64,000 bases of DNA from Candidatus Limnocylindrales bacterium (GTDB lineage: Bacteria; Chloroflexota; Limnocylindria; Limnocylindrales; CSP1-4). The DNA is taken from positions 3,347 to 67,346 of the forward strand of contig JBBSFD010000012.1 of assembly GCA_038239115.1 (NCBI GenBank). The letters run 5' to 3'. The translations under genes and the position numbers were made by a program. Of this stretch, positions 39,734 to 52,961 are shown in pieces (the first letter of the stretch is position 1; each line of letters starts with the position of its first letter). The notes under the pieces were generated by a model that made no database searches, was not told the origin of the DNA, and was given only the letters and a program-made list of their open reading frames with translations.

Positions 39734-41440
39734 CTAGAACAGGCCGACGATGTTCCCGCTGGCGTCGATGTCGATGCGCTCGCCACCCGGAATCGAGGGC
39801 AGCCCGGGCATCGTCCGCATCTCGCCGATGAGCGGCGTCACGAAGCCTGCCCCGGCCGAGAGGCGGACATCGCGGATCGGGATGGTGAAGCCGCTGGGTC
39901 GACCCTTCAGGTTCGGATCGTGGCTGATCGAGTACTGGGTCTTGGCCATGTTCACCGCGAGATGGCCGTAACCGAGCTCCTCGTACAGCTTGAGCGCCCG
40001 GCTGGCCGCCGGCAGGTATTCGACCCCGGCCGCCCCGTAGACCTCGGTCGCGATGGTTTCGATCTTCATGCGCAGTGAGGCTTCGTCGAGGTACAGAAAA
40101 TGGAAGTCAGGCGAGCCGATCTGGGCCGTGTCCCAGACGGCCCGGGCCAGCGCCTCGGCCCCCGCCCCACCGTCGGTGAAATGGGTCGATACGAGCGCGT
40201 CGCGGGCGCCGGCTGCCAGGGCCACCTCCTGGATCGCGGCCACTTCGGCGGGCGTATCGGTGGGGAAGGCGTTGATCGCAACGACCACCTCCACGCCATA
40301 GCTCCGGACGATCTCGATCTGCTTAGCCAGGTTCTGGGCGCCCAGCCGAACCGCCTCGACGTTCTCCTCGAGCAGGGCCGGGTCGAGCGGCTTGCCGGCC
40401 ACGATCCGACCCACGCCGCCGTGCATCTTGAGCGCGCGGATCGTGCCCACGATGACCGCCGCATCCGGGCGCAGGCCTGACTGGCGGCACTTGATGTCGA
40501 AGAACTTCTGGGCGCCCATGTCGGCACCGAAGCCGGCCTCGGTGCACACGATGTCGTTGGTCACCAAGGCCAGCCGGTCGGCCAGGACCGAGTTGTTGCC
40601 ATGGGCGATGTTGGCGAACGGCCCGCAATGGACGAAGGCTGGTCCACCCTCGAGCGTCTGGAGCAGGTTCGGCTTGATCGCGTCGACGAGCAGCACGGTC
40701 ATCGCTCCGGCAACCTTGAGATCCTCGAGGGTGACCGGCTTGGCATCGCGGGTATAGGCCACGACGACCCGGCTGAGCCGGTTGCGCAGGTCGTGGATGT
40801 CGGAGGCGAGGGCCAGGATCGCCATCACCTCGGAGGCGACCGTGATCATCGTCTCGGTTTCGCGCGGGATCCCGCCATCGCGGCCACCCAGGCCGATGAC
40901 CACCTTGCGCAGAGCGCGATCGCTGATGTCCACGACCCGTGGCCAGGTGATCGTGAGGGGGTCGATGCCGAGTGGATTCTTGTGATAGAGGCTGTTGTCG
41001 AGGAAGGCGGCCGCCAGGTTGTGGGCCGCGCCGATGGCATGGACATCGCCCGTCAGGTGCAGGTTGAAATCCTCCATCGGGATGACCTGGCTGTAGCCGC
41101 CGCCGGCCGCTCCACCCTTGATCCCGAACACCGGCCCGAGCGACGGCTGGCGGATCGTGACCGCGGCCCGCTTGCCGATCCGGTTCAAGCCCTGGACGAG
41201 GCCCACGACCGTGGTGGATTTGCCCTCGCCCAGGGGCGTCGGGGTGATGCCGGTGACGAGGATGTACTTGCCCTTTGGGTTAGAAGCCTCCAGGCGCTCG
41301 ATCGCGGCCAGCGGGACCTTGGCCTTGCGCGGGCCGTACTGCTCGATCTCGTCGTCGCGCAGGCCCAGCTCGCGGGCGATATCGATGATCGGCCGGGGCG
41401 TGACGGATCGGGCGATCTCGAGGTCGGTGGGAAAGGTCAT
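39734..41440 (-). CDS. fhs: formate--tetrahydrofolate ligase
   Basis: Full-length FTHFS collinearity (TPLGEGKSTT P-loop, GGAAGGGY, FANIAHGNNS). Start MTFPTDLEI. The upstream part of the 1080-aa track ORF is artefact. Confidence 0.9.
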   Translation of the reverse strand: MTFPTDLEIARSVTPRPIIDIARELGLRDDEIEQYGPRKAKVPLAAIERLEASNPKGKYILVTGITPTPLGEGKSTTVVGLVQGLNRIGKRAAVTIRQPSLGPVFGIKGGAAGGGYSQVIPMEDFNLHLTGDVHAIGAAHNLAAAFLDNSLYHKNPLGIDPLTITWPRVVDISDRALRKVVIGLGGRDGGIPRETETMITVASEVMAILALASDIHDLRNRLSRVVVAYTRDAKPVTLEDLKVAGAMTVLLVDAIKPNLLQTLEGGPAFVHCGPFANIAHGNNSVLADRLALVTNDIVCTEAGFGADMGAQKFFDIKCRQSGLRPDAAVIVGTIRALKMHGGVGRIVAGKPLDPALLEENVEAVRLGAQNLAKQIEIVRSYGVEVVVAINAFPTDTPAEVAAIQEVALAAGARDALVSTHFTDGGAGAEALARAVWDTAQIGSPDFHFLYLDEASLRMKIETIATEVYGAAGVEYLPAASRALKLYEELGYGHLAVNMAKTQYSISHDPNLKGRPSGFTIPIRDVRLSAGAGFVTPLIGEMRTMPGLPSIPGGERIDIDASGNIVGLF

Positions 41441-42360
41441 GGACCGTTGACTCCAGCTTTGAGGGCCGATGTTGAGCGCGCCGCGCCGGCCTGGGCGCGG
41501 GCGGCCTGCAGGACGTGGGTCATGAGCAGGGCGTTGGTGACCGGGCCAACGCCGCCGGGAACCGGCGTGATTGCCCCAGCGACCAGGCGGGCCGAGTCGA
41601 AGTCGACGTCGCCCACCAGGACCTGACCGGCCGGGCCCCGATCGACCATGTTGATGCCCACGTCGACGACCGTCGCCCCCGGTTTGATCATCGCGCCGGT
41701 GACCAGCCCGGGCCTGCCCGCTGCAACCACCACGACGTCGGCCGTCGCCAGCATGACGGCGAGGTTGGGCGTGCGCGAGTGGCAGATCGTGACGGTTGCG
41801 TCCTCCCGGGTCAGGAGGATGGCCGCCGGCCAGCCGACCACGTTGGACCGGCCGATGACCACGACCTGCTTGCCCCTCAGCTCGATCCCCGAGCGCTTGA
41901 GGAGCTCCACCGCGGCCTGCGCCGTCGTCGGCACGAAACCCGGGTGGCCGAGCAGGAGCCGGCCGGCATTGAGGGGATGAATGCCATCGACGTCCTTGGT
42001 CGGGTCGATTGTGTCGGTCACGGTCGACAGTGGGATCGACTTGGGCAGCGGCATCTGGACGATGATCCCGCTGACCAGCGGGTCGCGGTTCAGCTCGATC
42101 AGGTGGTGTCGGAGCTGCATGGCCGATGCCTGACCCGGAATCTCGACGAGGCGACCGTCGATGCCGGCCGAGCGACAGCCGCGCAGGATCTGCTGGAGGT
42201 AGACCGCCGACGGCGCATCGGCGCCGACGATCACCACGCCCAGGGCCGGAGGGTAGCCGTGATCCACCTTGAACTGGGCGACCTCGGCCTGGACCGAGGC
42301 GCGAATATCCGCCGCGATCGGGCTGCCCAGGAGGAGTCGAGCCTCGCTCGGGTGGGTCAC
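41437..42360 (-). CDS. folD: bifunctional methylenetetrahydrofolate dehydrogenase/methenyl-THF cyclohydrolase
   Basis: GIIVQMPLP, VVVIGRSNVVGWP, VDVGIN and PVPGGVGPVT motifs of FolD. GTG start inferred at 42360. ATGA overlap with fhs. Confidence 0.85.
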   Translation of the reverse strand: MTHPSEARLLLGSPIAADIRASVQAEVAQFKVDHGYPPALGVVIVGADAPSAVYLQQILRGCRSAGIDGRLVEIPGQASAMQLRHHLIELNRDPLVSGIIVQMPLPKSIPLSTVTDTIDPTKDVDGIHPLNAGRLLLGHPGFVPTTAQAAVELLKRSGIELRGKQVVVIGRSNVVGWPAAILLTREDATVTICHSRTPNLAVMLATADVVVVAAGRPGLVTGAMIKPGATVVDVGINMVDRGPAGQVLVGDVDFDSARLVAGAITPVPGGVGPVTNALLMTHVLQAARAQAGAARSTSALKAGVNGP

Positions 42361-42365
42361 TCCGA

Positions 42366-43049
42366 TCAGGCGCCCTCGGCCAGCGCCGCGCGGAGCTCGC
42401 TCGAGGCCACCACCTCGCGGGTCGCCAGCGATAGCTCGTCGATCTCGCCGAGCAGCTCGCCGACCCGGGCCGACATCGCGCTGCTGAAGTCCGGATCGCC
42501 CACGGCAGGCAGGTTGACCAGCACGTTGGCCCCGGCCCCATGCGCAGCCGCCGTTGCGAGCAGGCAAGCCACGGCGAGATCGCTCGATGCGTTCTGGTTG
42601 CTCCGGCCGGCCAGGGCCTGGGCTGCCTCGACCACCTCGCGGCAGGCCTCGACGCAGGCCAACGGCACGTTCGAGGCAGCTCGGGCGGCGGAGCGCAGGG
42701 CCATCTTCCGAGCAGCCTGCTCGTCGTCCGTTTCCTTGGGCTGGCGCAGCGCGGCGGCGAAGACAGCGTACGCGGCCGCGTCGTCGTCGGCCAGGCGCAA
42801 GAGGCGCTGGGCAAGCTCCCGGCCGGCGGCCCCTGCTGAGGCGTGAGTAGCGGCATGGTCGGCGTACTTCGGCCGACCCTCCGACAGGGTCGCCACCATG
42901 GCCACCAGGCTCGCGGCCAAGGATGCTGCGACGGCAGAGGCGCTGCCTCCGCCCGGAACCGGCTCGGACGACGCAAGGGCCTCGACGAACCCGGCGACGG
43001 TCACGTCCGCGAAGCGCGCCGGCTCGGCCGATACAGGTCCGCTGGGCAT
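42366..43049 (-). CDS. formiminotetrahydrofolate cyclodeaminase / methenyl-THF cyclohydrolase family (FTCD C-terminal-like) protein
   Basis: All-helical protein. VAGFVEALASSEPVPGGGSASAVAASLAASLVAMV matches the cyclodeaminase domain signature. First gene of the cyclodeaminase-folD-fhs operon. Confidence 0.7.
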   Translation of the reverse strand: MPSGPVSAEPARFADVTVAGFVEALASSEPVPGGGSASAVAASLAASLVAMVATLSEGRPKYADHAATHASAGAAGRELAQRLLRLADDDAAAYAVFAAALRQPKETDDEQAARKMALRSAARAASNVPLACVEACREVVEAAQALAGRSNQNASSDLAVACLLATAAAHGAGANVLVNLPAVGDPDFSSAMSARVGELLGEIDELSLATREVVASSELRAALAEGA

Positions 43050-43199
43050 GACCGAATTGTAGGCGCGCCGGTTGCCGAGGCAGAGGAGATGTCTCGCAGG
43101 GCAGGCACGGTACCGGCGTGCCGCCCCGCGAGACTTTATGCCCGTCGACGACCGGGGGAGGGCCCGGTGCGCAGGCTCAGATGTTGGACCGAGCGCCGG

Positions 43200-43529
43200 T
43201 CAGGCGGCGATCCGGGACTCGGCCAGTCCTCGCGATTCGATCCGGTCGGCGGCCTCCACGACCCAACGCCTCGGCCGGTGCTGGTAGGTCACCTGGAAAC
43301 GCGCACGCGCCGTCTGGACCTCGAAGAACGAGCGCGGCCCGGTCTCGACCGGATAGGCCGATCGCTCCTCGCGGACGAGATTGTGCGACGTGATTGGCAG
43401 GCGCTCGTCGGCCCAGGTGATCTCGCGCGGCCGGCCATCGAACCAGTCGGTCTTGACGTGGACGTGCGTCGGCTCGACTCGGAGCATTGCCATTGGTCCA
43501 CTCCTTCCCAGACCCTTGGGCGGGCCCAA
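43200..43529 (-). CDS. small hypothetical protein preceded by two SOS (Cheo-type) boxes
   Basis: ORF ...MAMLRVEPTHVHVKTDWFDGRPREITWADERLPITSHNLVREERSAYPVETGPRSFFEVQTARARFQVTYQHRPRRWVVEAADR. Globular-looking, no recognised family. Operator pair sits immediately upstream. Confidence 0.45.
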   Translation of the reverse strand: MGPPKGLGRSGPMAMLRVEPTHVHVKTDWFDGRPREITWADERLPITSHNLVREERSAYPVETGPRSFFEVQTARARFQVTYQHRPRRWVVEAADRIESRGLAESRIAA

Positions 43530-43545
43530 ACCTGCAGCTTTGTGA

Positions 43546-43591
43546 CAGAACGTGTGTTCGGTATGCCTGACACTAGATCGAACATCCGTTC
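43546..43591. promoter_or_regulatory. two tandem LexA (Cheo-type, GAAC-N4-GTTC) boxes
   Basis: AGAACGTGTGTTCG and CGAACATCCGTTCG seen directly, about 18 bp apart. They lie between the dinB stop and the start of the small gene at 43529. Confidence 0.55.
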
Positions 43592-43651
43592 GGTGTCAAG
43601 AGCTCAAGCGCAGGATCATCGGCCGCCGCGTCAGCTTGCCTGTCACAGCGA

Positions 43652-44926
43652 TCAGGAGTCCCGGCGTGGCCTTGGCGGCGAGGGCGGATCGGCGTCCGAC
43701 ATGCCGGTGCGCCGCTCGAGCGGCTTCATCGGGTCGCGCTCGAAGGGTGCCGGGAGGCCTGAACCGAGCAAGCGCGCCCGGGTCACGGCCTGGTCGCCGA
43801 ACCTGCGCCGGACAGCGTCGGCGGCCTCGGTTGCCCGGCGCCTGCGGCCATCCGGTCCGGCCGACTCATCGCCGAACATCGTCAGCTGCTCGCGTTCGGC
43901 AAAACCGGAGGTGCCTACACCCAGCAGACGCACCCGGATCCCCTTGATCTCCGGCTGGGCCAGCTCGAGGGCCGTTCGCCAGATCGGCTCGGCCAGGTCG
44001 GTCGGCTCGGGCAGGGTCTTCTGGCGGGTAATCGTCCGAAACGACGAGTCCCGGATCTTGACCTGGACGGTGGCTGCCCGCAGACCGGCCGAGCGCAGCC
44101 GGCTGGCCACCCCGTCGGCCATGGCCAGGAGCGTCTTGTCGATCAGGGCCCGGTCGTTGGTGTCCACGTCGAAGGTGTGCTCGTGCGAGATCGACTTGGC
44201 CGGTCCCCCGTCGCTCACCGGATCGTCGTCGATGCCCTGGGCGCGCAGGGCGAGGGTCGCGCCGTGCTTGCCAAACCGACGGACGAGCAGGTCGGAGGGC
44301 AGGACGGCCAGGTCACCCATCGTGGACACGCCGAGCTCGCCCAGGCCGGCGGCGGTTCGCTCGCCGACGCCCGACAGGCGCCGGATCGGCAGGGGCGCCA
44401 GGAAGGCGGCCTCGGTGCCCGGCTCCACAACCACCAGCGCGTCGGGCTTGCGCAGGTCGGAGGCGATCTTGGCCACGAGCTTGGTGGTCGCGACACCGAC
44501 CGAGGCAGTCAGCCGGACCTCCTCGAGGATCGCAGCCCGGATCGTCCGGCCGATCTCGGGACCGTCGCCAAACAGGGCGTGCGAGGCCGTCACGTCCAGG
44601 AAGGCCTCGTCAATCGAGATCGGTTCGACCAGCGGCGTGAACCGCCGCAGGATCGCCATCACCTCGCGGCTGACAGCCTGGTATCTGCGCCCGTCGACCG
44701 GCAGGAAGACGGCGTCCGGGCAGAGCGCGCCGGCCGTCCGGAGGGGCATGGCCGAGTGAATCCCGAAGCGCCGAGCCTCATAGCTGGCCGCCGAGACCAC
44801 CCCGCGCTGATCCGGTCCGCCGCCGCCGACCACGACGGGCCGGCCGCGCAGCTCCGGCCGGTCGCGCTGCTCGACGGCAGCAAAGAACGCGTCGAGATCG
44901 ACGTGCAGGATCGTCCGGCTGGTCAC
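43652..44926 (-). CDS. dinB: DNA polymerase IV (Y-family)
   Basis: ILHVDLDAFFAAVEQ...GRPVVVGG and SIDEAFLD catalytic motifs (both Asp and the Glu present, so an active polymerase rather than an ImuB-like pseudo-polymerase). Confidence 0.85.
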   Translation of the reverse strand: MTSRTILHVDLDAFFAAVEQRDRPELRGRPVVVGGGGPDQRGVVSAASYEARRFGIHSAMPLRTAGALCPDAVFLPVDGRRYQAVSREVMAILRRFTPLVEPISIDEAFLDVTASHALFGDGPEIGRTIRAAILEEVRLTASVGVATTKLVAKIASDLRKPDALVVVEPGTEAAFLAPLPIRRLSGVGERTAAGLGELGVSTMGDLAVLPSDLLVRRFGKHGATLALRAQGIDDDPVSDGGPAKSISHEHTFDVDTNDRALIDKTLLAMADGVASRLRSAGLRAATVQVKIRDSSFRTITRQKTLPEPTDLAEPIWRTALELAQPEIKGIRVRLLGVGTSGFAEREQLTMFGDESAGPDGRRRRATEAADAVRRRFGDQAVTRARLLGSGLPAPFERDPMKPLERRTGMSDADPPSPPRPRRDS

Positions 44927-44964
44927 CGGTCCATGATGCGCCCGGCCGTCAGCCGGGCCGGGGC

Positions 44965-45411
44965 TCAGCCCTTGGGCTCGACCACCACGGTGACCTCGGG
45001 GGTCATCCCGGCCAGGACCCGGATTGCGACCTTGTAGGTGCCCAGGGACTTGAGCGGCTCGTCCAGGTCGATCTTGTGGCGATCGACGTCGATTCCGCGC
45101 CGGGCGAGGGCGTCGGCGATGTCCTTGGCCGTGATCGAGCCGTACAGCTTGCCGCCGTCGCCGACCTTCACGCCCATCGTCAGGGTTGTCCCGCCGATCC
45201 GGTTGGCGTTGATCTCGGCCTCGTCGCGTTCGCGCTTGCGCTTGTCCTCGCGGCTGGCGATGTCGTGCTGCCAGGCGCGATAGGCGCCGCCAGCGGCCGG
45301 TACGGCCACCTTCTGGGGGATCAGGAAGTTGAGCGCATAGCCGTCGGCCACCACTTTCATCTCGCCACTCTTACCGAGCGCGGCGACATCAGCCGTCAGG
45401 ATGACCTTCAC
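44965..45411 (-). CDS. rplI: 50S ribosomal protein L9
   Basis: MKVILTADVAALGKSGEMKVVADGYALNFLIPQ N-domain and C-domain collinear with bacterial L9. Confidence 0.9.
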   Translation of the reverse strand: MKVILTADVAALGKSGEMKVVADGYALNFLIPQKVAVPAAGGAYRAWQHDIASREDKRKRERDEAEINANRIGGTTLTMGVKVGDGGKLYGSITAKDIADALARRGIDVDRHKIDLDEPLKSLGTYKVAIRVLAGMTPEVTVVVEPKG

Positions 45412-45917
45412 GCGAGCGAACCCTCCTTGTTGATCCAGCTCCGGACCCGCGGTCCGATCCTGGTCGAGCGCAGCGCCCCTGCACCCAGGTCAATTGCCTG
45501 GGGGACCCGGCGGATGGCGCGCCGGATCGGGCCCGGCATGAGGCGTCGAATTTGGGCGACATCGCGGTCGAACTCCGAGCGCTCGATCCCGAGCACGTCG
45601 AGCTTCTCGACCAGGACCTCGTGCGGCACGCCGTCCAGGAACACGTCGACCGCCAGGACCATCACGACCAGGTCATCGAGCCCGCCGATCACCGGGATGC
45701 GATCGGGAATGAGGTCGGCCGGCAGGATCAGGTAGCCGAGCGCGCCGGCAAGGAGCACCTTGCGGCTCATCGGCGTGCGCTCGTCCATGACCAGCGCCCA
45801 CATCAGCCGAGCGTAGATCGGGGCGCGGCTGGCAACCGGCAAGAAGGCACTCATGGTCATGACCCGGCCGAATGCCCGGCCCGAGCCCCCGTGTGCTTTC
45901 GACTTCGAGCTTGCCAT
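45408..45917 (-). CDS. DUF1232 (YkvA-like) membrane protein
   Basis: LLAGALGYLILPADLIPDRIPVIGGLDDLVV is the DUF1232 core. Start uncertain (track ORF extends to 46124; internal MASSKSKAHG start preferred). Confidence 0.5.
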   Translation of the reverse strand: MASSKSKAHGGSGRAFGRVMTMSAFLPVASRAPIYARLMWALVMDERTPMSRKVLLAGALGYLILPADLIPDRIPVIGGLDDLVVMVLAVDVFLDGVPHEVLVEKLDVLGIERSEFDRDVAQIRRLMPGPIRRAIRRVPQAIDLGAGALRSTRIGPRVRSWINKEGSLA

Positions 45918-46044
45918 CTGTGGTCCTACTCCAGGAACTGCGTCCACCCGGCTTCGTCGATCCGGGACAGCGCAGTCTACCAGCGGCGTGCGACGAGGCA
46001 ACCAGCGGCAGTCAGGGGATGACACCAGGTGCCTCCCGGGAGCC

Positions 46045-46073
46045 TTGACAATCGAACGGACGTTCTGTACCGT
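46045..46073. promoter_or_regulatory. lexA promoter with embedded SOS box: TTGACA - at CGAACGGACGTTCT g - TACCGT
   Basis: Seen directly: -35 TTGACA, 17-bp spacer containing a Cheo-type box CGAACGGACGTTC (fits CGAACRNRYGTTYC), -10-like TACCGT, then AGGAGG RBS and the lexA ATG at 46093. Confidence 0.65.
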
Positions 46074-46092
46074 GCTCGTGACAGGAGGTCGG

Positions 46093-46743
46093 ATGACCAA
46101 GCACGACGCAGATCGCAAGCTCAAGATCGTCGACTACATCGCCGCCACGCTGCGCACCCGCGGGGTTCCGCCGTCGGTCCGCGAGATCGCGCTTGCCGTG
46201 AACCTGGCCTCCACATCTGCGGTCCACCATCACCTCCAGATCCTCGAGCGCGAGGGCTACCTCGAGCGTGGTGCGGGCCAGGCGCGGTCGATCCGGCTGA
46301 CGCCAACAGCCGCCCTCCAGCTGGGCCTGTCGAGCGAGCTCACGCCCCAGACCGCGGCGACCGAATCGCACCTCCTGCCGATCATCGGCGAGATTGCCGC
46401 CGGCGGTCCGATCGAGGCCTACCAGCGGGCCGACGAGACGATGGCAGTGCCCGAGATGCTGGCCCCCAGCGGCGACGCCTACGTGCTGCGCGTTCGGGGT
46501 GACTCGATGATCGACGCCCACATCGCCGACGGCGACTTCGTAGTGATCCGGCCGCAGTCCACCGCCCGCAACGGCGACATCGTGGTCGCCCAGGTCGAGG
46601 AGAACGCGGTCACCCTGAAACGCTTTTTCAAGGAGTCCGGCCGCATCCGGCTGCAGCCGGCGAACACCGAGTACGCCCCGATGTTCTACGACGACGTGTT
46701 GATCCAGGGCAAGCTCATCGGGGTGATCCGCCGCCTCGACTAG
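46093..46743 (+). CDS. lexA: LexA repressor
   Basis: N-terminal winged-helix (SVREIALAVNLASTSAVHHHLQILEREGYLER). AGGP cleavage site (IAAGGPIEA). S24 peptidase Ser (GDSMIDA) and Lys (TLKRF). Confidence 0.9.
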   Translation: MTKHDADRKLKIVDYIAATLRTRGVPPSVREIALAVNLASTSAVHHHLQILEREGYLERGAGQARSIRLTPTAALQLGLSSELTPQTAATESHLLPIIGEIAAGGPIEAYQRADETMAVPEMLAPSGDAYVLRVRGDSMIDAHIADGDFVVIRPQSTARNGDIVVAQVEENAVTLKRFFKESGRIRLQPANTEYAPMFYDDVLIQGKLIGVIRRLD

Positions 46744-46835
46744 GGCGCGGACCCGGGTGACCGGGCGATCTCCACAACCCTATCCACATCCGGTCAACTT
46801 CGGGCCGGGATTGGTGGACGGCACGCCATCGCCCG

Positions 46836-48296
46836 GTGCGGCTTGTTGATCGATCGGGCGGTCGAGCGACGACCATAGAAGCTTCCTCGCCGACCCGCCA
46901 TGACAGCCTGGTTGTCACGGCCGGCCCGCAGCCTGGGTGTGCCTTGATCGACCGACTTCCGCCCCAAAGCCTCGAAGCGGAGCAATCCGTCCTGGGCTCG
47001 ATCCTGATCGATCGCGATGCGATCGTCGAGATCGCCGAGTTCCTGCGGGCGGAAGATTTCTATCGCCAGGCGAACGGCTCGATCTACGCCGTGATGCTCG
47101 ATCTGTTCGAGCGACGCGAGCCGGTCGACATCGTGACCGTGGCCGAGGCGCTCGAGCGGAACGACCAGCTCGACGCGATTGGTGGCCGCTCGTACCTGGC
47201 CAGCTTGTCCAACCAGACCCCGACCGCGGTTCACGCTGTGCAGTACGGCCGGATCGTCGAACGCAAGGCGGTCCTGCGCAACCTGATCGCCGCGGCAGGC
47301 AAGATCGCCGGGATCGGCTACGAGGATCCGGCCGAGATCCAGGAGGCGATCGACCGGGCCGAAAGCGAGCTGTTCAGCGTCAGCCAGCGCCGGATCGAGA
47401 CGGGCTTCAGCAAGCTCAACTCGCTGCTCCACGACGCCTACGACCGGCTCGACTACCTGCATGCCCATCGGGGCGAGATCAGCGGCGTCCGGACCGGCTT
47501 CACCGACCTGGACACCCTCACGACAGGCCTCCAGAAGAGCGACCTGGTCGTGCTCGCCGCCCGGCCCAGCGTGGGCAAGACGAGCTTTGCCCTGAACATC
47601 GCCGAGCACGCCGCGGTCAAGGACGGCCGCAGTGTGGGTGTATTCAGCCTCGAGATGAGCAAGGAGCAGCTCGTTCTGCGGCTCCTTTCGAGCGTCGCCA
47701 ACATCGACTCGCAGCGGCTCCGGAGCGGCTTCCTCGAGGAGATGGACTTCGCCCGGATCGCGCCGGCCATGAACTCGCTGTCGGCGGCCCCGATCTACAT
47801 CGACGACACGCCCAATATCAGTGCGATGGAGCTGCGGACCAAAGCGCGCCGACTGCAGGCCGAAGCCGGCCTCGACCTGATCATCGTGGACTACCTCCAG
47901 CTTATGCAGGCCACCACCCAGAACCGCGACTCGAACCGGGTCCAGGAAGTGTCTGAGATCTCGCGCGGGCTCAAGGCCCTCGCCCGCGAGCTGTCGGTGC
48001 CCGTGATCGCCCTGTCGCAGCTATCCCGCCAGCCGGAGATGCGCGAGTCGCGCGAGCCGCGCCTGTCGGACCTGCGCGAGTCCGGGGCAATCGAGCAGGA
48101 TGCCGACCTGGTCATGTTCCTGTGGCGGGAGAAGGAGCGGGCCGGCGAGGAGCAGGAGTCCGACGGCGAGGTCATCAACCTGAAGCTGGCCAAGCACCGC
48201 AACGGGCCCACGGGCGAGATCAAGCTGTGGTTCAAGAAGACCCAGACCCGCTTCGTCAGCTATGCCGGCGAGCGCTACGCAGACGTCGCCAACTAG
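46836..48296 (+). CDS. dnaB: replicative DNA helicase
   Basis: N-terminal PPQSLEAEQSVLGSIL, Walker A ARPSVGKTSFALN, Walker B LIIVDYLQLM, arginine finger region. 486 aa, no intein. True start may be TTG about 46944. Confidence 0.85.
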   Translation: MRLVDRSGGRATTIEASSPTRHDSLVVTAGPQPGCALIDRLPPQSLEAEQSVLGSILIDRDAIVEIAEFLRAEDFYRQANGSIYAVMLDLFERREPVDIVTVAEALERNDQLDAIGGRSYLASLSNQTPTAVHAVQYGRIVERKAVLRNLIAAAGKIAGIGYEDPAEIQEAIDRAESELFSVSQRRIETGFSKLNSLLHDAYDRLDYLHAHRGEISGVRTGFTDLDTLTTGLQKSDLVVLAARPSVGKTSFALNIAEHAAVKDGRSVGVFSLEMSKEQLVLRLLSSVANIDSQRLRSGFLEEMDFARIAPAMNSLSAAPIYIDDTPNISAMELRTKARRLQAEAGLDLIIVDYLQLMQATTQNRDSNRVQEVSEISRGLKALARELSVPVIALSQLSRQPEMRESREPRLSDLRESGAIEQDADLVMFLWREKERAGEEQESDGEVINLKLAKHRNGPTGEIKLWFKKTQTRFVSYAGERYADVAN

Positions 48297-48371
48297 CGCT
48301 GGGCGGTCCCCTTGCGGTGCTCTGGCGCACCACTTTGGTCGGCTAGGTGGAGAGCGGTGCACTCGCTCCGT

Positions 48372-48391
48372 GCGATTCGTGCACGAATCGC
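48372..48391. repeat. perfect 20-bp palindrome GCGATTCGTGCACGAATCGC
   Basis: Self-complementary, seen directly, followed by a partial third half-site CGAATCGCC. In the dnaB / zinc-ribbon intergenic region. Confidence 0.5.
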
Positions 48392-48573
48392 CCCTCCGGT
48401 TCGAATCGCCACTCTATGCGCATCTTGACGAGGCGGGTATCGTCCCGCTTCTAGAGTCCGACCAAACCGCCGGCCGATCGCGAACCGGGCACGCGACACG
48501 CTCGACTCCGTCGTCCGTCCCCCAGGGCGGGCTCCGATTCATCCTCGCTCAGGGCGCAGGAGGCCGGATCAGG

Positions 48574-48882
48574 GTGCATCAGGATCGAACGCTCGTCTGC
48601 CGCGACTGTGCCGAGGAGTTCGTCTTCTCGGCCGGCGAGCAGGCTTTCTTCGAGAGCAAGGGTCTGCAGAACGACCCGCAGCGCTGCCTGTCGTGTCGGG
48701 CGGCGGCGAAACGAGCCCGGTCGATTGGGGGGCCGCGCGAGTTCCATGCCGCGATCTGCGGAACCTGCGGCGGTCAGGCGATCGTGCCGTTTGCTCCGCG
48801 CAACGACCGGCCGATCTACTGCAGCTCTTGCTACGACCATGTCCAGGCCGCTCGCGAGGTCCAGTCCGCCTCCCCAGCCTGA
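48574..48882 (+). CDS. zinc-ribbon protein (zf-trcl-like, CxxC-x17-CxxC ...CxxC-x16-CxxC)
   Basis: GTG preceded by AGGAGG. LVCRDCAEEFVFSAGEQAFFESKGLQNDPQRCLSCR and ICGTCGGQAIVPFAPRNDRPIYCSSC are two ribbon knuckle pairs. Confidence 0.5.
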   Translation: MHQDRTLVCRDCAEEFVFSAGEQAFFESKGLQNDPQRCLSCRAAAKRARSIGGPREFHAAICGTCGGQAIVPFAPRNDRPIYCSSCYDHVQAAREVQSASPA

Positions 48883-49479: not shown

Positions 49480-52400
49480 ATGCCCGGCATGGCACTCCCT
49501 CGCAGCGAAAGCGACCGCCGCCAGCCGGATGAGTCGGAACGCTCGTCCGTTGACAGGCGCGCGACGGCGTCCGTATCGTTCCCCATCCACCGGACAGCCC
49601 AGCCGCCTCCCGGCGGTCATATCCCGGTGGCAGTCGGTCCGGGGCGGACACAACCCGGTGCGTCCCCGAATCGCGAGTCGGGGGAGCGCGTGTCTGAGTT
49701 CCCGCTCCAGACAGCCAAGGTCCAGCGTCCCGCCCTGCGGGTGGAGACGTTGCAGCGCGACCGGTTGCTTGACTGGCTGACCGCCCAGGAGCAGTCGCGG
49801 GTGATCCTGATCAGCGCCGAAGCGGGCTACGGCAAGACCACCCTGCTCGCGGACTTCTCCCGGCGGACCCGCCGTCGCGTGCTCTGGTTCCGGATCGACG
49901 AAGGCGATCGGAGCTGGGTCAGCCTGGTCCGCTACCTGCTCGCAGCCGGCCAGGAACTGGATCCGGAGTTCGGTCTCGAGACTGGCCGCCTGATCGAACG
50001 CCTCGGCTCACCCGAATCTCCCATACGTGACGAGATCGTGGCCAGTCTGATCCGCGACTTCAGCGTGCTCGGACTCGGCGGCGGTGCTCTGCTGATCCTG
50101 GACGACTATCACCAAATCGACGATGTCGCGGAGATCCGCGAGATCCTCAATGAGTTCGTGGCCCGTGCTCCGGAGCGACTGACCATCGTGATCGCGGGAC
50201 GGCGTCCGCCGAGCCTGGCGCTAGCCCGGCTGCGCTCGATCGGCGCCGTGGCTGAGCTGCGCACCGACGACCTGCGCTTTGACGTGACCGAGTCGGAACG
50301 GCTGTTTCGGGTTACATACGGACGCGCCCTGGACCAGGACGTGCTGGCCGATCTGACCCGCCGAATCGATGGCTGGGCAGCCTGCCTGCAACTCGTTCAG
50401 GCCGCTCTCCGAGACCGATCCACCGCCGAGATCCGGGAGTTTGTCGCTGACCTCAGCGGCGCAACCGGCGACCTCCACGACTACCTCGCCGAGGAGGTGG
50501 TCGGCGACCTCGATCCGCCGATCCAGCGATTTCTGATGCGGGCCTCCCTGCTCCAATCGATCTATCCCAAGCTGGCCGCCGTGGTCGGCGAGGTCAACGA
50601 CCTTGACGCGGGCAGGCTCGTCGCCGAAACCGAGCGGATTGGCCTCCTCAGCCGCCGAAGCGACGCGCCGGCAGGCGGACGGCGTTTCCACCCCTTGGTG
50701 AAGGAGTTCCTCGAGGCTCGTTTGCGGCGGGAGGCGGGCGAGGACGAAATCATCCGCCTACATCGGCTGATCGCCATCCACGCCCGCGCCACCGACTGGC
50801 GGCTGGCGGCCCACCACTTTGCCGCCGCCGGTGACATCGACGACCTCCATGCACTCGTCGAGGCCTCGTTGCCGTCGATCATGGCGGCGGGCGACTTCGC
50901 CATCGCCGAATCGTTCATCGATCGCATGCCGGACGGCCGGACCTGGCCGATCTTCGACATCGTGCTGTCGCGCATGGAGCTCCATCGCGGCCGACCAACC
51001 GATGCTGTTCGCCTGGCCGAGACGGCGGTCGCGGGCCTGGGATCAAGTCCTGGTAGCCCAATCCTCGACCAAGCCCTCGCGAACCTGACCTCGGTCTATT
51101 ACCAGGCCGGCCTCTTGAAGAAAGCGCGCGAGACCGCAACAAACCTCTATCGGGATGGCCCAAATGGCCAATTCGCGAACATCGCGAAAGCCACCGCCGA
51201 CGTCATCGATTCGTCGATCGATGGTTCGCTTACCGCTCCAGTCGATGTCCTCTACTCGATGGCGACACAGCAGCAAGCCGGCGGGGATCTCCATTACTTC
51301 GGGATCACCCAACTCAATATCGGCGAATTCGAGCGCGCACGAGGCAACCCAAATGCCGCACTCGTGGCGGCGAACGAGGCCGTGGGCGCACTCAGTGCAA
51401 GCTCGGCTAGCCACGAGGTGCCCGCGGCTCGCCTGATCAAAGCTTGGGCCCAGGCGCATCTCAATGAGATGGAGGGTGCACTCTCTGAGGTCGAGACTGC
51501 GCTCAACTCCGAATTCCGGCTGGTCCGTGACGAAGTCCGGATCGAAGCGGCGTCAATTCTGCTCACGTATGCGGACGCCGCCAAGGCCAGAGCTGTTCTT
51601 GCACGCGTGGGCAACCTCGAAGCCCTCGCACCCGATGTTCTGGATCAATACGCCGTTTCCATGGCGGAGCTGGACATCACAGACGGGCTGTACGAGAACG
51701 CTCGTAGTCGACTCGATAGGCTCGCGATCGACGAGCCCCATCGGGAGCCGGGGTTCAAGGCTCGGGTAATGACACTACGTGCAATCTCGGCAGCTCTATG
51801 CGCTGATCCCAGGGCGACCGATCTTCTCGAGGCGGCGCTCCATCAGGCGATGCTACAGGGTGCGGGCAGGTGGGGAACTGAGGCTGCGATAGCGCTGCGT
51901 CTAGTTCGTCCCGAAGGTGACCTCGAGGAGTTGGTTCTGACCCGAGACGACGCGATTGAGCCGTGGTTGAGCGCCATTGCCGAGCTCGTCCTCACGCGTA
52001 ATGAGAGCGCATCTCCTGCTGTAGACCGTCTGGTCGCGGAATCTGCGCTTTCGAGGCCCAGTCGATGGCGGCCTGCCCTGCGACGGTCCATGGGCGCGGG
52101 CAGTCGGGCATCTCGAACAATCGCAGCGAACCTCCTCGAGTTGGTTGGCGAAGCCCAGGACGTACCGCTCCTCATTGCGTTTGCGCATGAGGCAAGGCTC
52201 GGTCAAGGCGCCAGGTTTGGGCGTGACTTGGCGCGCCGGGTGGCAAGTCCAATCCATGTCGCCGACCTGGGCCGCGTAGGCATTCAGATTGGTGACCGCG
52301 TCGTCGAAGGCGAGTCAGTCCGCCGCAAGGTGCTCGCATTGCTGTGCTTCCTGATCACGCGTCCGAACATGTCGGCGGCCCGAGACCAGGTCGTCGATGC

Positions 52401-52961
52401 ACTTTGGCCGGATCAAGACCCAGCGGCCGCTTCGAACTCCCTGAATCAAACCGTGTACTTCCTGAGGCGGTCTTCGAGCCCAAATACGCCGAGGATCAAT
52501 CGCCCGGGTACCTGAGACACGAAACCGACTTGCTTTGGGTCGATGCCCGGCTCGTGACAGCACAGTCGCTGGCGTGCCGGCAGTGGATCGACGAAGCTCG
52601 TGGTTCGTCCTCCTGGGCAATCGTCGAGTCACTAAGTCGAGGCTACAAAGGTCGCTTCGCCCTCGACTTTGAGTACGAAGAATGGTGCGCGACCTACCGC
52701 GACAATCTCCATGCCTCGTACCTCGAAGTCATTGAGAAGGCGATCGACGACGAGATACAGGCCGCGCGATTCGGCCGAGCCATCGAGCTTTGCAGGCGGG
52801 CGTTGGATGTGGACCCGACCTGTGAGCCCATTGAGCGCCAACTTCTTCGGACCTACCGAACGACAGGTGCACATGCTGCGGCTGAGGAGCAGTACCGCCA
52901 CTACGCCGCGACCATGTCGGAGGAGCTCGGGATTACCCCGCCTCCGCTGGCAGATCTCTAG
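49480..52961 (+). CDS. large STAND/AAA ATPase - helical repeat - OmpR-type winged helix - BTAD regulator; apparent frameshift near 52466-52472
   Basis: P-loop VILISAEAGYGKTTLLADF and hhhhDD Walker B LLILDDYHQ (MalT/AfsR-like NTPase). Long helical/TPR-like middle. C-terminal wHTH (RRKVLALLCFLITRPNMSAARDQVVDALWPD...LNQTVYFLRR). The BTAD continuation (EPKYAEDQSPGYLRHETDLLWVDARLV...LGITPPPLADL) is in the +1 frame (ORF 52344..52961). Confidence 0.6.

Follow-up and report, generated by a model that had tools for sequence, protein, structure and literature searches.

ImuB-C, the C-terminal domain of the ImuB protein in the mutasome made up of ImuA, ImuB and DnaE2, was described by Aravind et al. (2013, PMC3765255) as a beta-rich domain in which a C-terminal tryptophan and two or more basic residues are conserved, and which is often found as a stand-alone protein, most frequently beside DinB and LexA. 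Stand-alone forms encoded beside active Y-family polymerases include the GSU0042-like proteins, as in Geobacter sulfurreducens with its lexA-imuB-C-polY operon, and Swol_1669 (Aravind et al. 2013; Timinskas and Venclovas 2019, PMC6511836). The polymerases paired with a solo ImuB-C carry a motif resembling the N-terminus of RecA, and the Geobacter operon is damage-induced (PMC6511836). In a 2026 survey (PMC12926913) ImuB-C is given as a novel beta-barrel without relatives in the PDB. We discuss here a small gene lying directly downstream of dinB in a stretch of 64,000 nucleotides (nt) from Candidatus Limnocylindrales bacterium (GenBank assembly GCA_038239115.1, contig JBBSFD010000012.1, positions 3,347 to 67,346 of the forward strand), the whole of which we call the window and to which coordinates refer unless a related locus is named. 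We think it is best explained as a directly LexA-repressed, monocistronic gene for a solo ImuB-C-type protein that works with the neighbouring DinB, and would give this explanation as a whole a probability of about 0.55.

The small gene, its upstream region, dinB and lexA are placed as follows.

43200..43493, minus strand: small gene, 97 amino acids (aa) and stop (MAMLRVEP...SRIAA), from the open reading frame (ORF) and its homologues
43501..43506, minus strand: Shine-Dalgarno sequence AAGGAG, 7 nt 5' of the ATG, with AAGGAG seen in related loci too
43547..43560, minus strand: LexA box 2 (proximal), AGAACGTGTGTTCG, on the gene strand CGAACACACGTTCT, at about +4 to +17 from the putative transcription start
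43570..43575, minus strand: putative -10 hexamer TAGTGT, from sequence reading and conservation
43579..43592, minus strand: LexA box 1 (distal), CGAACATCCGTTCG, on the gene strand CGAACGGATGTTCG, wholly within the -35/-10 spacer
43594..43599, minus strand: putative -35 hexamer TTGACA, from sequence reading and conservation
43652..44926, minus strand: dinB, for a Y-family polymerase of 424 aa with Pfam domains IMS and IMS_C
46053..46066, plus strand: lexA operator CGAACGGACGTTCT, 27 nt upstream of the lexA ATG
46093..46743, plus strand: lexA, with a LexA DNA-binding domain and an S24 peptidase domain, its start inferred from the 217-aa orthologues in related locus L011

The homologues of the small protein are 86-97 aa long and begin MA[MLF], which puts the start at the ATG at 43493 and gives a product of 97 aa. 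An earlier note on this DNA, made from the sequence alone, had allowed a product of 97 to 109 aa, and it is the shorter form that stands, the TTG start of the longer one being unused. The differences by codon position (0.21/0.14/0.46 over 84 distinct sequences) indicate that the small protein is under coding selection. Relatives were recovered as 145 representatives, all of the small-protein family, in a profile search of 1.8 billion representative proteins, as 421 clusters at 90% identity in a word-indexed search, and in 277 species in a scan of one genome per GTDB species; among the species listed nearly all are labelled Chloroflexota, 'Candidatus Limnocylindria' or Limnocylindrales. The long hits of the profile search were considered as true gene fusions and rejected, as they are frameshifted fusions with the neighbouring dinB or with FTCD_C, the gene on the other side. 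For comparison 95 related loci were fetched (given L numbers here), all of them from the Chloroflexota class Limnocylindria, with identity of the small protein down to about 35%.

The 64 kb contain 3 sites with the exact core GAAC-N4-GTTC, where shuffles predict 0.68. Two of the three are upstream of the small ORF, 32 bp apart, and the third is before lexA. In Firmicutes and Actinobacteria GAAC-N4-GTTC serves as the LexA motif (PMC3323433), and the same motif at the autoregulated lexA argues that the LexA of this organism uses it too. Both boxes had been quoted correctly in the earlier note, which had put them 20-60 bp upstream of the ORF; measured from the ATG to the nearest box edge the distances are about 54 and 86 nt. 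Counting boxes within 200 nt upstream of the small-gene start, at least two exact boxes are found in 92 of the 95 loci, and the three exceptions are a truncated locus, L048 with its boxes slightly farther upstream, and a locus with a single point change in box 2. Chance is very far from accounting for the pair of boxes. Both boxes and their layout are kept in the most divergent clades (L011, L014, L015, L096 and L097), where protein identity is 35-46%.

Read on the gene strand, TTGACA (43599-43594) is followed by an 18-nt spacer containing box 1, then TAGTGT (43575-43570), 9 nt and box 2, from which it is about 40 nt to AAGGAG (43506-43501) and a further 7 nt to the ATG. A strict form of this pattern (TTGAC[AG], a spacer of 17-18 nt holding box 1, TAnnnT, 8-15 nt, box 2) fits 71 of the 93 distinct upstream regions, the same proportion that has TAnnnT at the -10 place, most commonly as TAGTGT. 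Of these 71 parsed loci, 66 have a spacer of 18 nt and 5 one of 17 nt, the -35 hexamer is TTGACA in 66 and TTGACG in 5, and the core of box 2 is invariant (71/71); the family consensus is CGAACAGA[TC]GTTCT for box 2 and CGAAC[AG][CG][CG]TGTTCG for box 1. The remaining 22 regions comprise L031, truncated to 31 nt, and 21 of sufficient length, which keep the layout with a visible -35 hexamer and a weaker -10 such as CAGGAT. A generic sigma-70 promoter scan called no promoter upstream of the small gene, because TAGTGT matches TATAAT at only 3 of 6 positions, and the promoter is therefore inferred from its conservation. Helical phasing of the two boxes was also looked for, but as their spacing varies from 30 to 36 bp we claim no cooperativity.

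On the evidence of sequence and conservation the small gene is a real SOS gene, probably repressed by LexA, and its two operators are placed so as to exclude RNA polymerase: one LexA dimer would bind between -35 and -10 and another at the transcription start. Expression would accordingly begin only after DNA damage, when RecA stimulates the self-cleavage of LexA. The strong LexA gating proposed earlier is supported, as the arrangement of one operator in the spacer and one at the start is found family-wide and the same motif is present at lexA.

The relation to dinB is one of proximity with separate control. In 75 of 88 loci dinB directly precedes the small gene, and in the other 13 it is still upstream and on the same strand, with 0.7-2.1 kb of inserted genes between the two, for example a Doc/Fic-like toxin gene in L020 (3432-3845) and genes for an extracytoplasmic function (ECF) sigma factor and an NHL-repeat protein in L039 (2009-3768). 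In these insertion loci the LexA-boxed promoter remains with the small gene, which argues that the small gene is a LexA-controlled unit of its own. There is no box in the 38-bp gap between rplI and dinB in the window, as had been noted before, and an exact box within 250 nt upstream of dinB was found in 0 of 77 related loci. In the clade of L011-L013 (2836-6264), with small proteins of 87 aa, four genes follow each other on one strand, namely lexA, an AlkZ-like gene whose predicted product is a crosslink glycosylase, dinB and the small gene, and dinB could there be transcribed from the lexA promoter. The dinB block is on the opposite side of lexA in L011-L013 as compared with the window, and at most 3 kb from lexA in both.

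The small protein is soluble and basic, with a grand average of hydropathy (GRAVY) of -0.70, an isoelectric point of 9.7 and 15 arginines, and no hydrophobic or membrane segment was found in it, the maximum 19-residue hydropathy being about 0. An AlphaFold2 (AF2) model from 109 sequences has a mean local confidence score (pLDDT) of 82 and a predicted TM-score (pTM) of 0.70, and consists of an all-beta core at residues 4-84 with six strands at 4-15, 22-27, 30-43, 54-61, 64-71 and 76-84. P22, R41, E43, G52-P53-R54, R76 and W77 are invariant or nearly so: W77 and R41 do not vary at all, at least 90% of members have R54 and R76, and the tryptophan is in the last strand and preceded by an arginine. 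The tail after the last strand varies in length and sequence; of 172 full-length relatives, 139 have Ala-Ala at its end and 155 a terminal alanine. Recognition of ssrA-like degrons by ClpXP depends mainly on a terminal Ala-Ala, natural substrates included (PMC7652416), and the conserved end suggests proteolytic control, as a hint and not as evidence; ClpXP would in that case clear the small protein once LexA repression returns. The window protein gave no match at threshold in Pfam, NCBIfam, PHROGs or PADLOC, a PDB sequence search with it gave nothing, a tblastn search of the small protein against plasmids gave only noise, and in a Foldseek search of PDB and BFVD there was nothing below E 0.04, with TM-scores below 0.45.

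The most recurrent weak Pfam match of the family is to DUF6504 (15 of 109 members, best E 0.0087, up to about 16.4 bits), and these matches cover the same region of the model, positions 20-85 of 103. For comparison, genuine ImuB proteins were taken from imuA-imuB-dnaE2 cassettes on Burkholderia and Agrobacterium plasmids by way of a plasmid DnaE2 search. Their C-termini score 18.6, 23.1 and 29.4 bits against DUF6504, and PF20114 is carried by proteins homologous to the C-terminus of the Agrobacterium ImuB, which their sources call 'protein ImuB'; from these two observations DUF6504 corresponds to the ImuB-C of Aravind et al. The family tryptophan and Arg41, Arg54 and Arg76 match the features that those authors list for ImuB-C. 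With hhalign the family aligns to rhizobial ImuB-C over 75 colinear columns (P 0.049), and with a trimmed template the score is 18.8 (P 0.013); among 300 column shuffles 2 score as high. Motifs that line up are P-x-x-[IV]-x-W, R-[DS]-[YF]-F-x-[VI]-[EQ] and, in the last strand, [RH]-W. A genuine ImuB-C (P0276), modelled with AF2 at pLDDT 83, has strands at 6-11, 21-24, 27-41, 54-62, 67-73 and 85-91. By the hhalign alignment, which uses sequence only, every one of these coincides with its counterpart in the window protein, and a dip in confidence at residues 41-50 is common to both models. The P0276 model had no fold match in the PDB either, and that neither model has one agrees with the published view of ImuB-C as a novel beta-barrel (PMC12926913). 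The published contexts of solo ImuB-C, with DinB and LexA, match as well, and DinB here has a motif that by eye resembles the RecA N-terminus, described below. We take the product to be beta-barrel-like, with about 80 residues, and conclude that it is probably a highly divergent stand-alone member of the ImuB-C (DUF6504) superfamily, and hold this part to be slightly more probable than the whole explanation that includes the role with DinB.

There are several points that weigh against this explanation. No member reaches the DUF6504 gathering score of 24.2 bits, and a spurious family, Peptidase_S6, collects 10 of 109 matches at similar E-values. The reversed-profile control in hhalign gave 17.3 against the real 18.8, and a direct comparison of hidden Markov model (HMM) to sequence, of the family with rhizobial ImuB-C, gave scores of 8-9 bits, which reversed sequences also attain. 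As these direct scores are not above their controls we do not claim homology to ImuB-C as proven. The exhaustive profile search of 1.8 billion proteins retrieved the family itself and no ImuB or DUF6504 proteins, and the DinB tail that is discussed below gave no match to DUF4113 by hmmscan, for which the published detection used HHpred. With regard to gene order, all of the loci are from one class and share inherited synteny, so that the dinB linkage has not been re-created independently and the adjacency is weak independent evidence on function; FTCD_C is moreover as constant a neighbour of the small gene as is dinB.

A search of the literature on DUF6504, on PF20114, or on Limnocylindria together with LexA found nothing. 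On pKRAD01 of Kineococcus radiotolerans (L105, 3443-3976) a gene for a 177-aa protein directly precedes one for a DnaE2-like protein of 1280 aa with a PHP domain. The 177-aa protein has GRPxxVRW...LPVT as in the small-protein family and WRG...ER...WW as in ImuB-C, separated by a low-complexity insert, and scores only 6-8 bits; it may be an unannotated solo ImuB-C.

DinB of the window has intact catalytic motifs (DLDAFFAAVE and SIDEAFLDVT), and after the little-finger domain a C-terminal extension with a clamp-binding-like QLTMF and a RecA-N-terminus-like AVRRRFGDQAVTRARLL. Both are well conserved in the distinct tails of DinB orthologues, Q[LIVM]x[LIVM]F being present in 84 of 87 and [IVL]Rx[RK][FY]Gxx[AS][IVL] in 71 of 87, with a conserved AVRRRFGxxAVTRARLL after QLxxF that we likened by eye to QIEKQFGKGSIMRLG of RecA. 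In the mechanism that we propose the small protein would associate with DinB, either as part of a translesion complex induced by damage or as its regulator, and from the clamp-binding-like and RecA-N-terminus-like motifs in DinB it seems that RecA is probably in the complex too. As an operator is missing from dinB in this lineage, it may be through the accessory subunit that the module is put under SOS control, and if the protein is ImuB-C-like, LexA may control translesion synthesis solely by way of that subunit, with dinB expressed constitutively.

It is useful to set the locus against the systems already known. With the solo ImuB-C proteins the small protein shares a size of about 90 aa, a beta-rich and non-catalytic nature, the C-terminal tryptophan and the conserved basic residues, a place beside a DinB-type polymerase with an extension that may be RecA-N-terminus-like, predicted LexA control, and a fold without PDB relatives. 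It differs from them in that the similarity is not significant and the Pfam and NCBIfam models miss the family, in that the small gene comes after and not before the polymerase gene and has its own two-operator promoter while dinB has none, and in that the family has a conserved Ala-Ala end and is confined to Limnocylindria. The C-terminal domain of ImuB in the ImuA-ImuB-DnaE2 mutasome has the same predicted order and lengths of the six strands, and alignable motifs. Unlike ImuB, however, the small protein is not fused to a polymerase-like domain, and there is no imuA or dnaE2 in the window or in the fetched loci; the ImuB domain contacts DnaE2 and ImuA, binding DnaE2 at its PHP domain, and such a partner is not seen here. 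UmuD with UmuC, and YolD or YqjX with UvrX or YqjW, are likewise cases of a small SOS-induced accessory protein encoded beside a Y-family polymerase, and the control of UmuD by proteolysis may be likened to what the Ala-Ala end suggests here. Unlike UmuD or YolD the small protein has neither an S24 peptidase domain nor the SH3-like YolD fold (no YolD-like or S24 peptidase match was found in Pfam at E up to 5 in 109 members), and partners of that type are encoded upstream of the polymerase and in one operon with it, in contrast to the small gene.

The neighbouring genes and other features of the region have still to be described, as some of them bear on the alternatives. The region is of high G+C content, and the order on the minus strand is a DUF1232 gene, rplI, dinB, the small ORF, a gene of FTCD_C cyclodeaminase type, folD and fhs; lexA is on the plus strand and divergent from the DUF1232 gene. 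An imuB/dnaE2 cassette near lexA was looked for in the window and neither gene is present; the neighbours found there are dnaB and genes for a zinc-finger protein and a STAND-type regulator.

42366-43049, minus strand: FTCD_C cyclodeaminase-type gene, with its ATG at 43049
43092..43133, minus strand: RNA hairpin with loop CCGGUAC, downstream of the small gene, from covariation
44965-45411, minus strand: rplI
48262-48882, plus strand: gene downstream of lexA and dnaB for a zinc-finger protein of treble-clef type (zf_Tbcl)
49480-52515, plus strand: gene downstream of lexA and dnaB for a STAND-type ATPase of 1011 aa, with an OmpR-type DNA-binding domain at its C-terminus

ARAGORN reports in addition an 85-nt tRNA-Pro(GGG) at 40085-40169 on the minus strand, which is inside the frame of formate-tetrahydrofolate ligase and is probably a false positive.

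In 86 of 95 loci the small gene is followed by FTCD_C, with occasional insertions. The sequence TACAAT at 43056-43061 on the minus strand is -10-like and lies 6 nt before the FTCD_C ATG, without room for a Shine-Dalgarno sequence, and CCTACAAT recurs before the FTCD_C start in many related loci. This suggests a leaderless mRNA for FTCD_C-folD-fhs and a promoter belonging to FTCD_C, in support of an independent unit for the small gene. In L005-L009 there is a third exact GAAC-N4-GTTC about 24 nt past the stop of the small gene (position 2976 in L005), upstream of the hairpin and FTCD_C.

The hairpin between the two genes is GC-rich, with a 14-bp stem and an invariant 7-nt loop, which suggests specific recognition. 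It is present in 87 of 95 loci (including L001, L005 and L016-L095), sometimes in 2 or 3 copies, and is nearly absent elsewhere in the loci, with one further occurrence in the window. Compensatory changes are seen in 13 of the 14 stem pairs, 93% of cells are paired as against about 45% when the partners are slid, and the G-U pairs fit the gene strand. The hairpin has no U tail, and an Rfam search of 42000-47000 gave no match at E up to 1; it is absent from the most divergent clades (L011-L015, L096). It probably marks the end of the small-gene transcription unit, and may terminate the SOS transcript. In L033 and L068 the gap after the small gene is 337-415 nt and filled with repeat units, each with a full or partial CCGGTACC hairpin, as if the element were able to multiply locally.

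Given this arrangement one might ask if the small gene acts with the one-carbon genes FTCD_C, folD and fhs, either as a regulator or partner, induced by damage, that would adjust folate-dependent nucleotide supply, or through read-through from the LexA promoter. The constancy of FTCD_C, which follows the small gene as regularly as dinB precedes it, and the conserved structured RNA with its sequence-specific loop between the two would fit such a role, as would the third box just past the stop in one clade. However the hairpin and the TACAAT suggest separate units, insertions of 0.5-1.5 kb split the small gene from FTCD_C in several loci, the most divergent clades lack the hairpin and still keep both boxes, and the small protein is unlike folate enzymes or known regulators, so that we regard this as very unlikely. 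It is harder still to believe that the boxes are not functional LexA sites or that the ORF is not expressed as protein: the failure of the generic scan to call a promoter speaks for it, but boxes, placement, Shine-Dalgarno sequence and frame are kept over about 90 loci down to 35% protein identity, and the same motif is at lexA.

A more serious alternative is that the protein is not a relative of ImuB-C but a new-fold SOS effector specific to Limnocylindria, for instance a factor that binds DNA damage or a checkpoint factor of the cytosol, with an Ala-Ala degron of ClpXP type as its timer; we regard it as possible but a good deal less probable than membership of the ImuB-C superfamily. More narrowly, the protein could be an SOS effector with no relation to polymerases, that is a cytosolic cell-cycle or division checkpoint analogous to SulA, or a growth-arresting factor, with two operators and quick proteolysis. 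The small protein is like SulA and other LexA-controlled checkpoint proteins in being tightly LexA-repressed, small and probably short-lived, and the very tight occlusion of the promoter by two operators and the degron-like C-terminal Ala-Ala would suit this role. There is no significant family or fold match to set against it, the homology to ImuB-C being unproven, and restriction of the family to one lineage is usual for SOS division inhibitors. Nevertheless the protein has no sequence or fold similarity to SulA, nor to the folds of MazF, CcdB or AbrB, and no antitoxin-like partner gene was seen. It also lacks the membrane anchor of the Gram-positive and alphaproteobacterial inhibitors (YneA, ChiZ and SidA), and no LysM domain was matched in the window protein, while the several weak lines that lead to ImuB-C would all need to be coincidence. 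This narrower proposal we consider unlikely. The earlier note had suggested a mutagenesis accessory factor, a division inhibitor or a toxin, and of the three the accessory factor is the best fit, as the protein resembles a stand-alone ImuB-C, though membership is not proven; for an inhibitor or toxin there is no positive support beyond the tight repression and the degron-like tail, and no PADLOC or PHROG match.

With regard to novelty, that note had spoken of an undescribed SOS effector, which is too strong, since the kind to which it would belong, a solo ImuB-C under LexA regulation and next to an active Y-family polymerase, is known from the comparative genomics of Aravind et al. (2013, PMC3765255) and of Timinskas and Venclovas (2019, PMC6511836). 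What appears to be new is a divergent, class-specific clade that is missed by current models, with its own two-operator promoter beside an operator-less dinB, and with the Ala-Ala end.

Stand-alone ImuB-C proteins are predicted partners of translesion polymerases, and none has a demonstrated function. The Limnocylindria clade offers a clean, small and separately regulated example, in an abundant and largely uncultured class of soil and freshwater bacteria. The practical value is modest, consisting of better annotation for several hundred 'hypothetical proteins' and a testable hypothesis of a DinB partner. If our explanation is true, the ImuB-C superfamily extends past the reach of current models, and in these bacteria the SOS switch and a proteolytic timer would act on the accessory protein and not on the polymerase.

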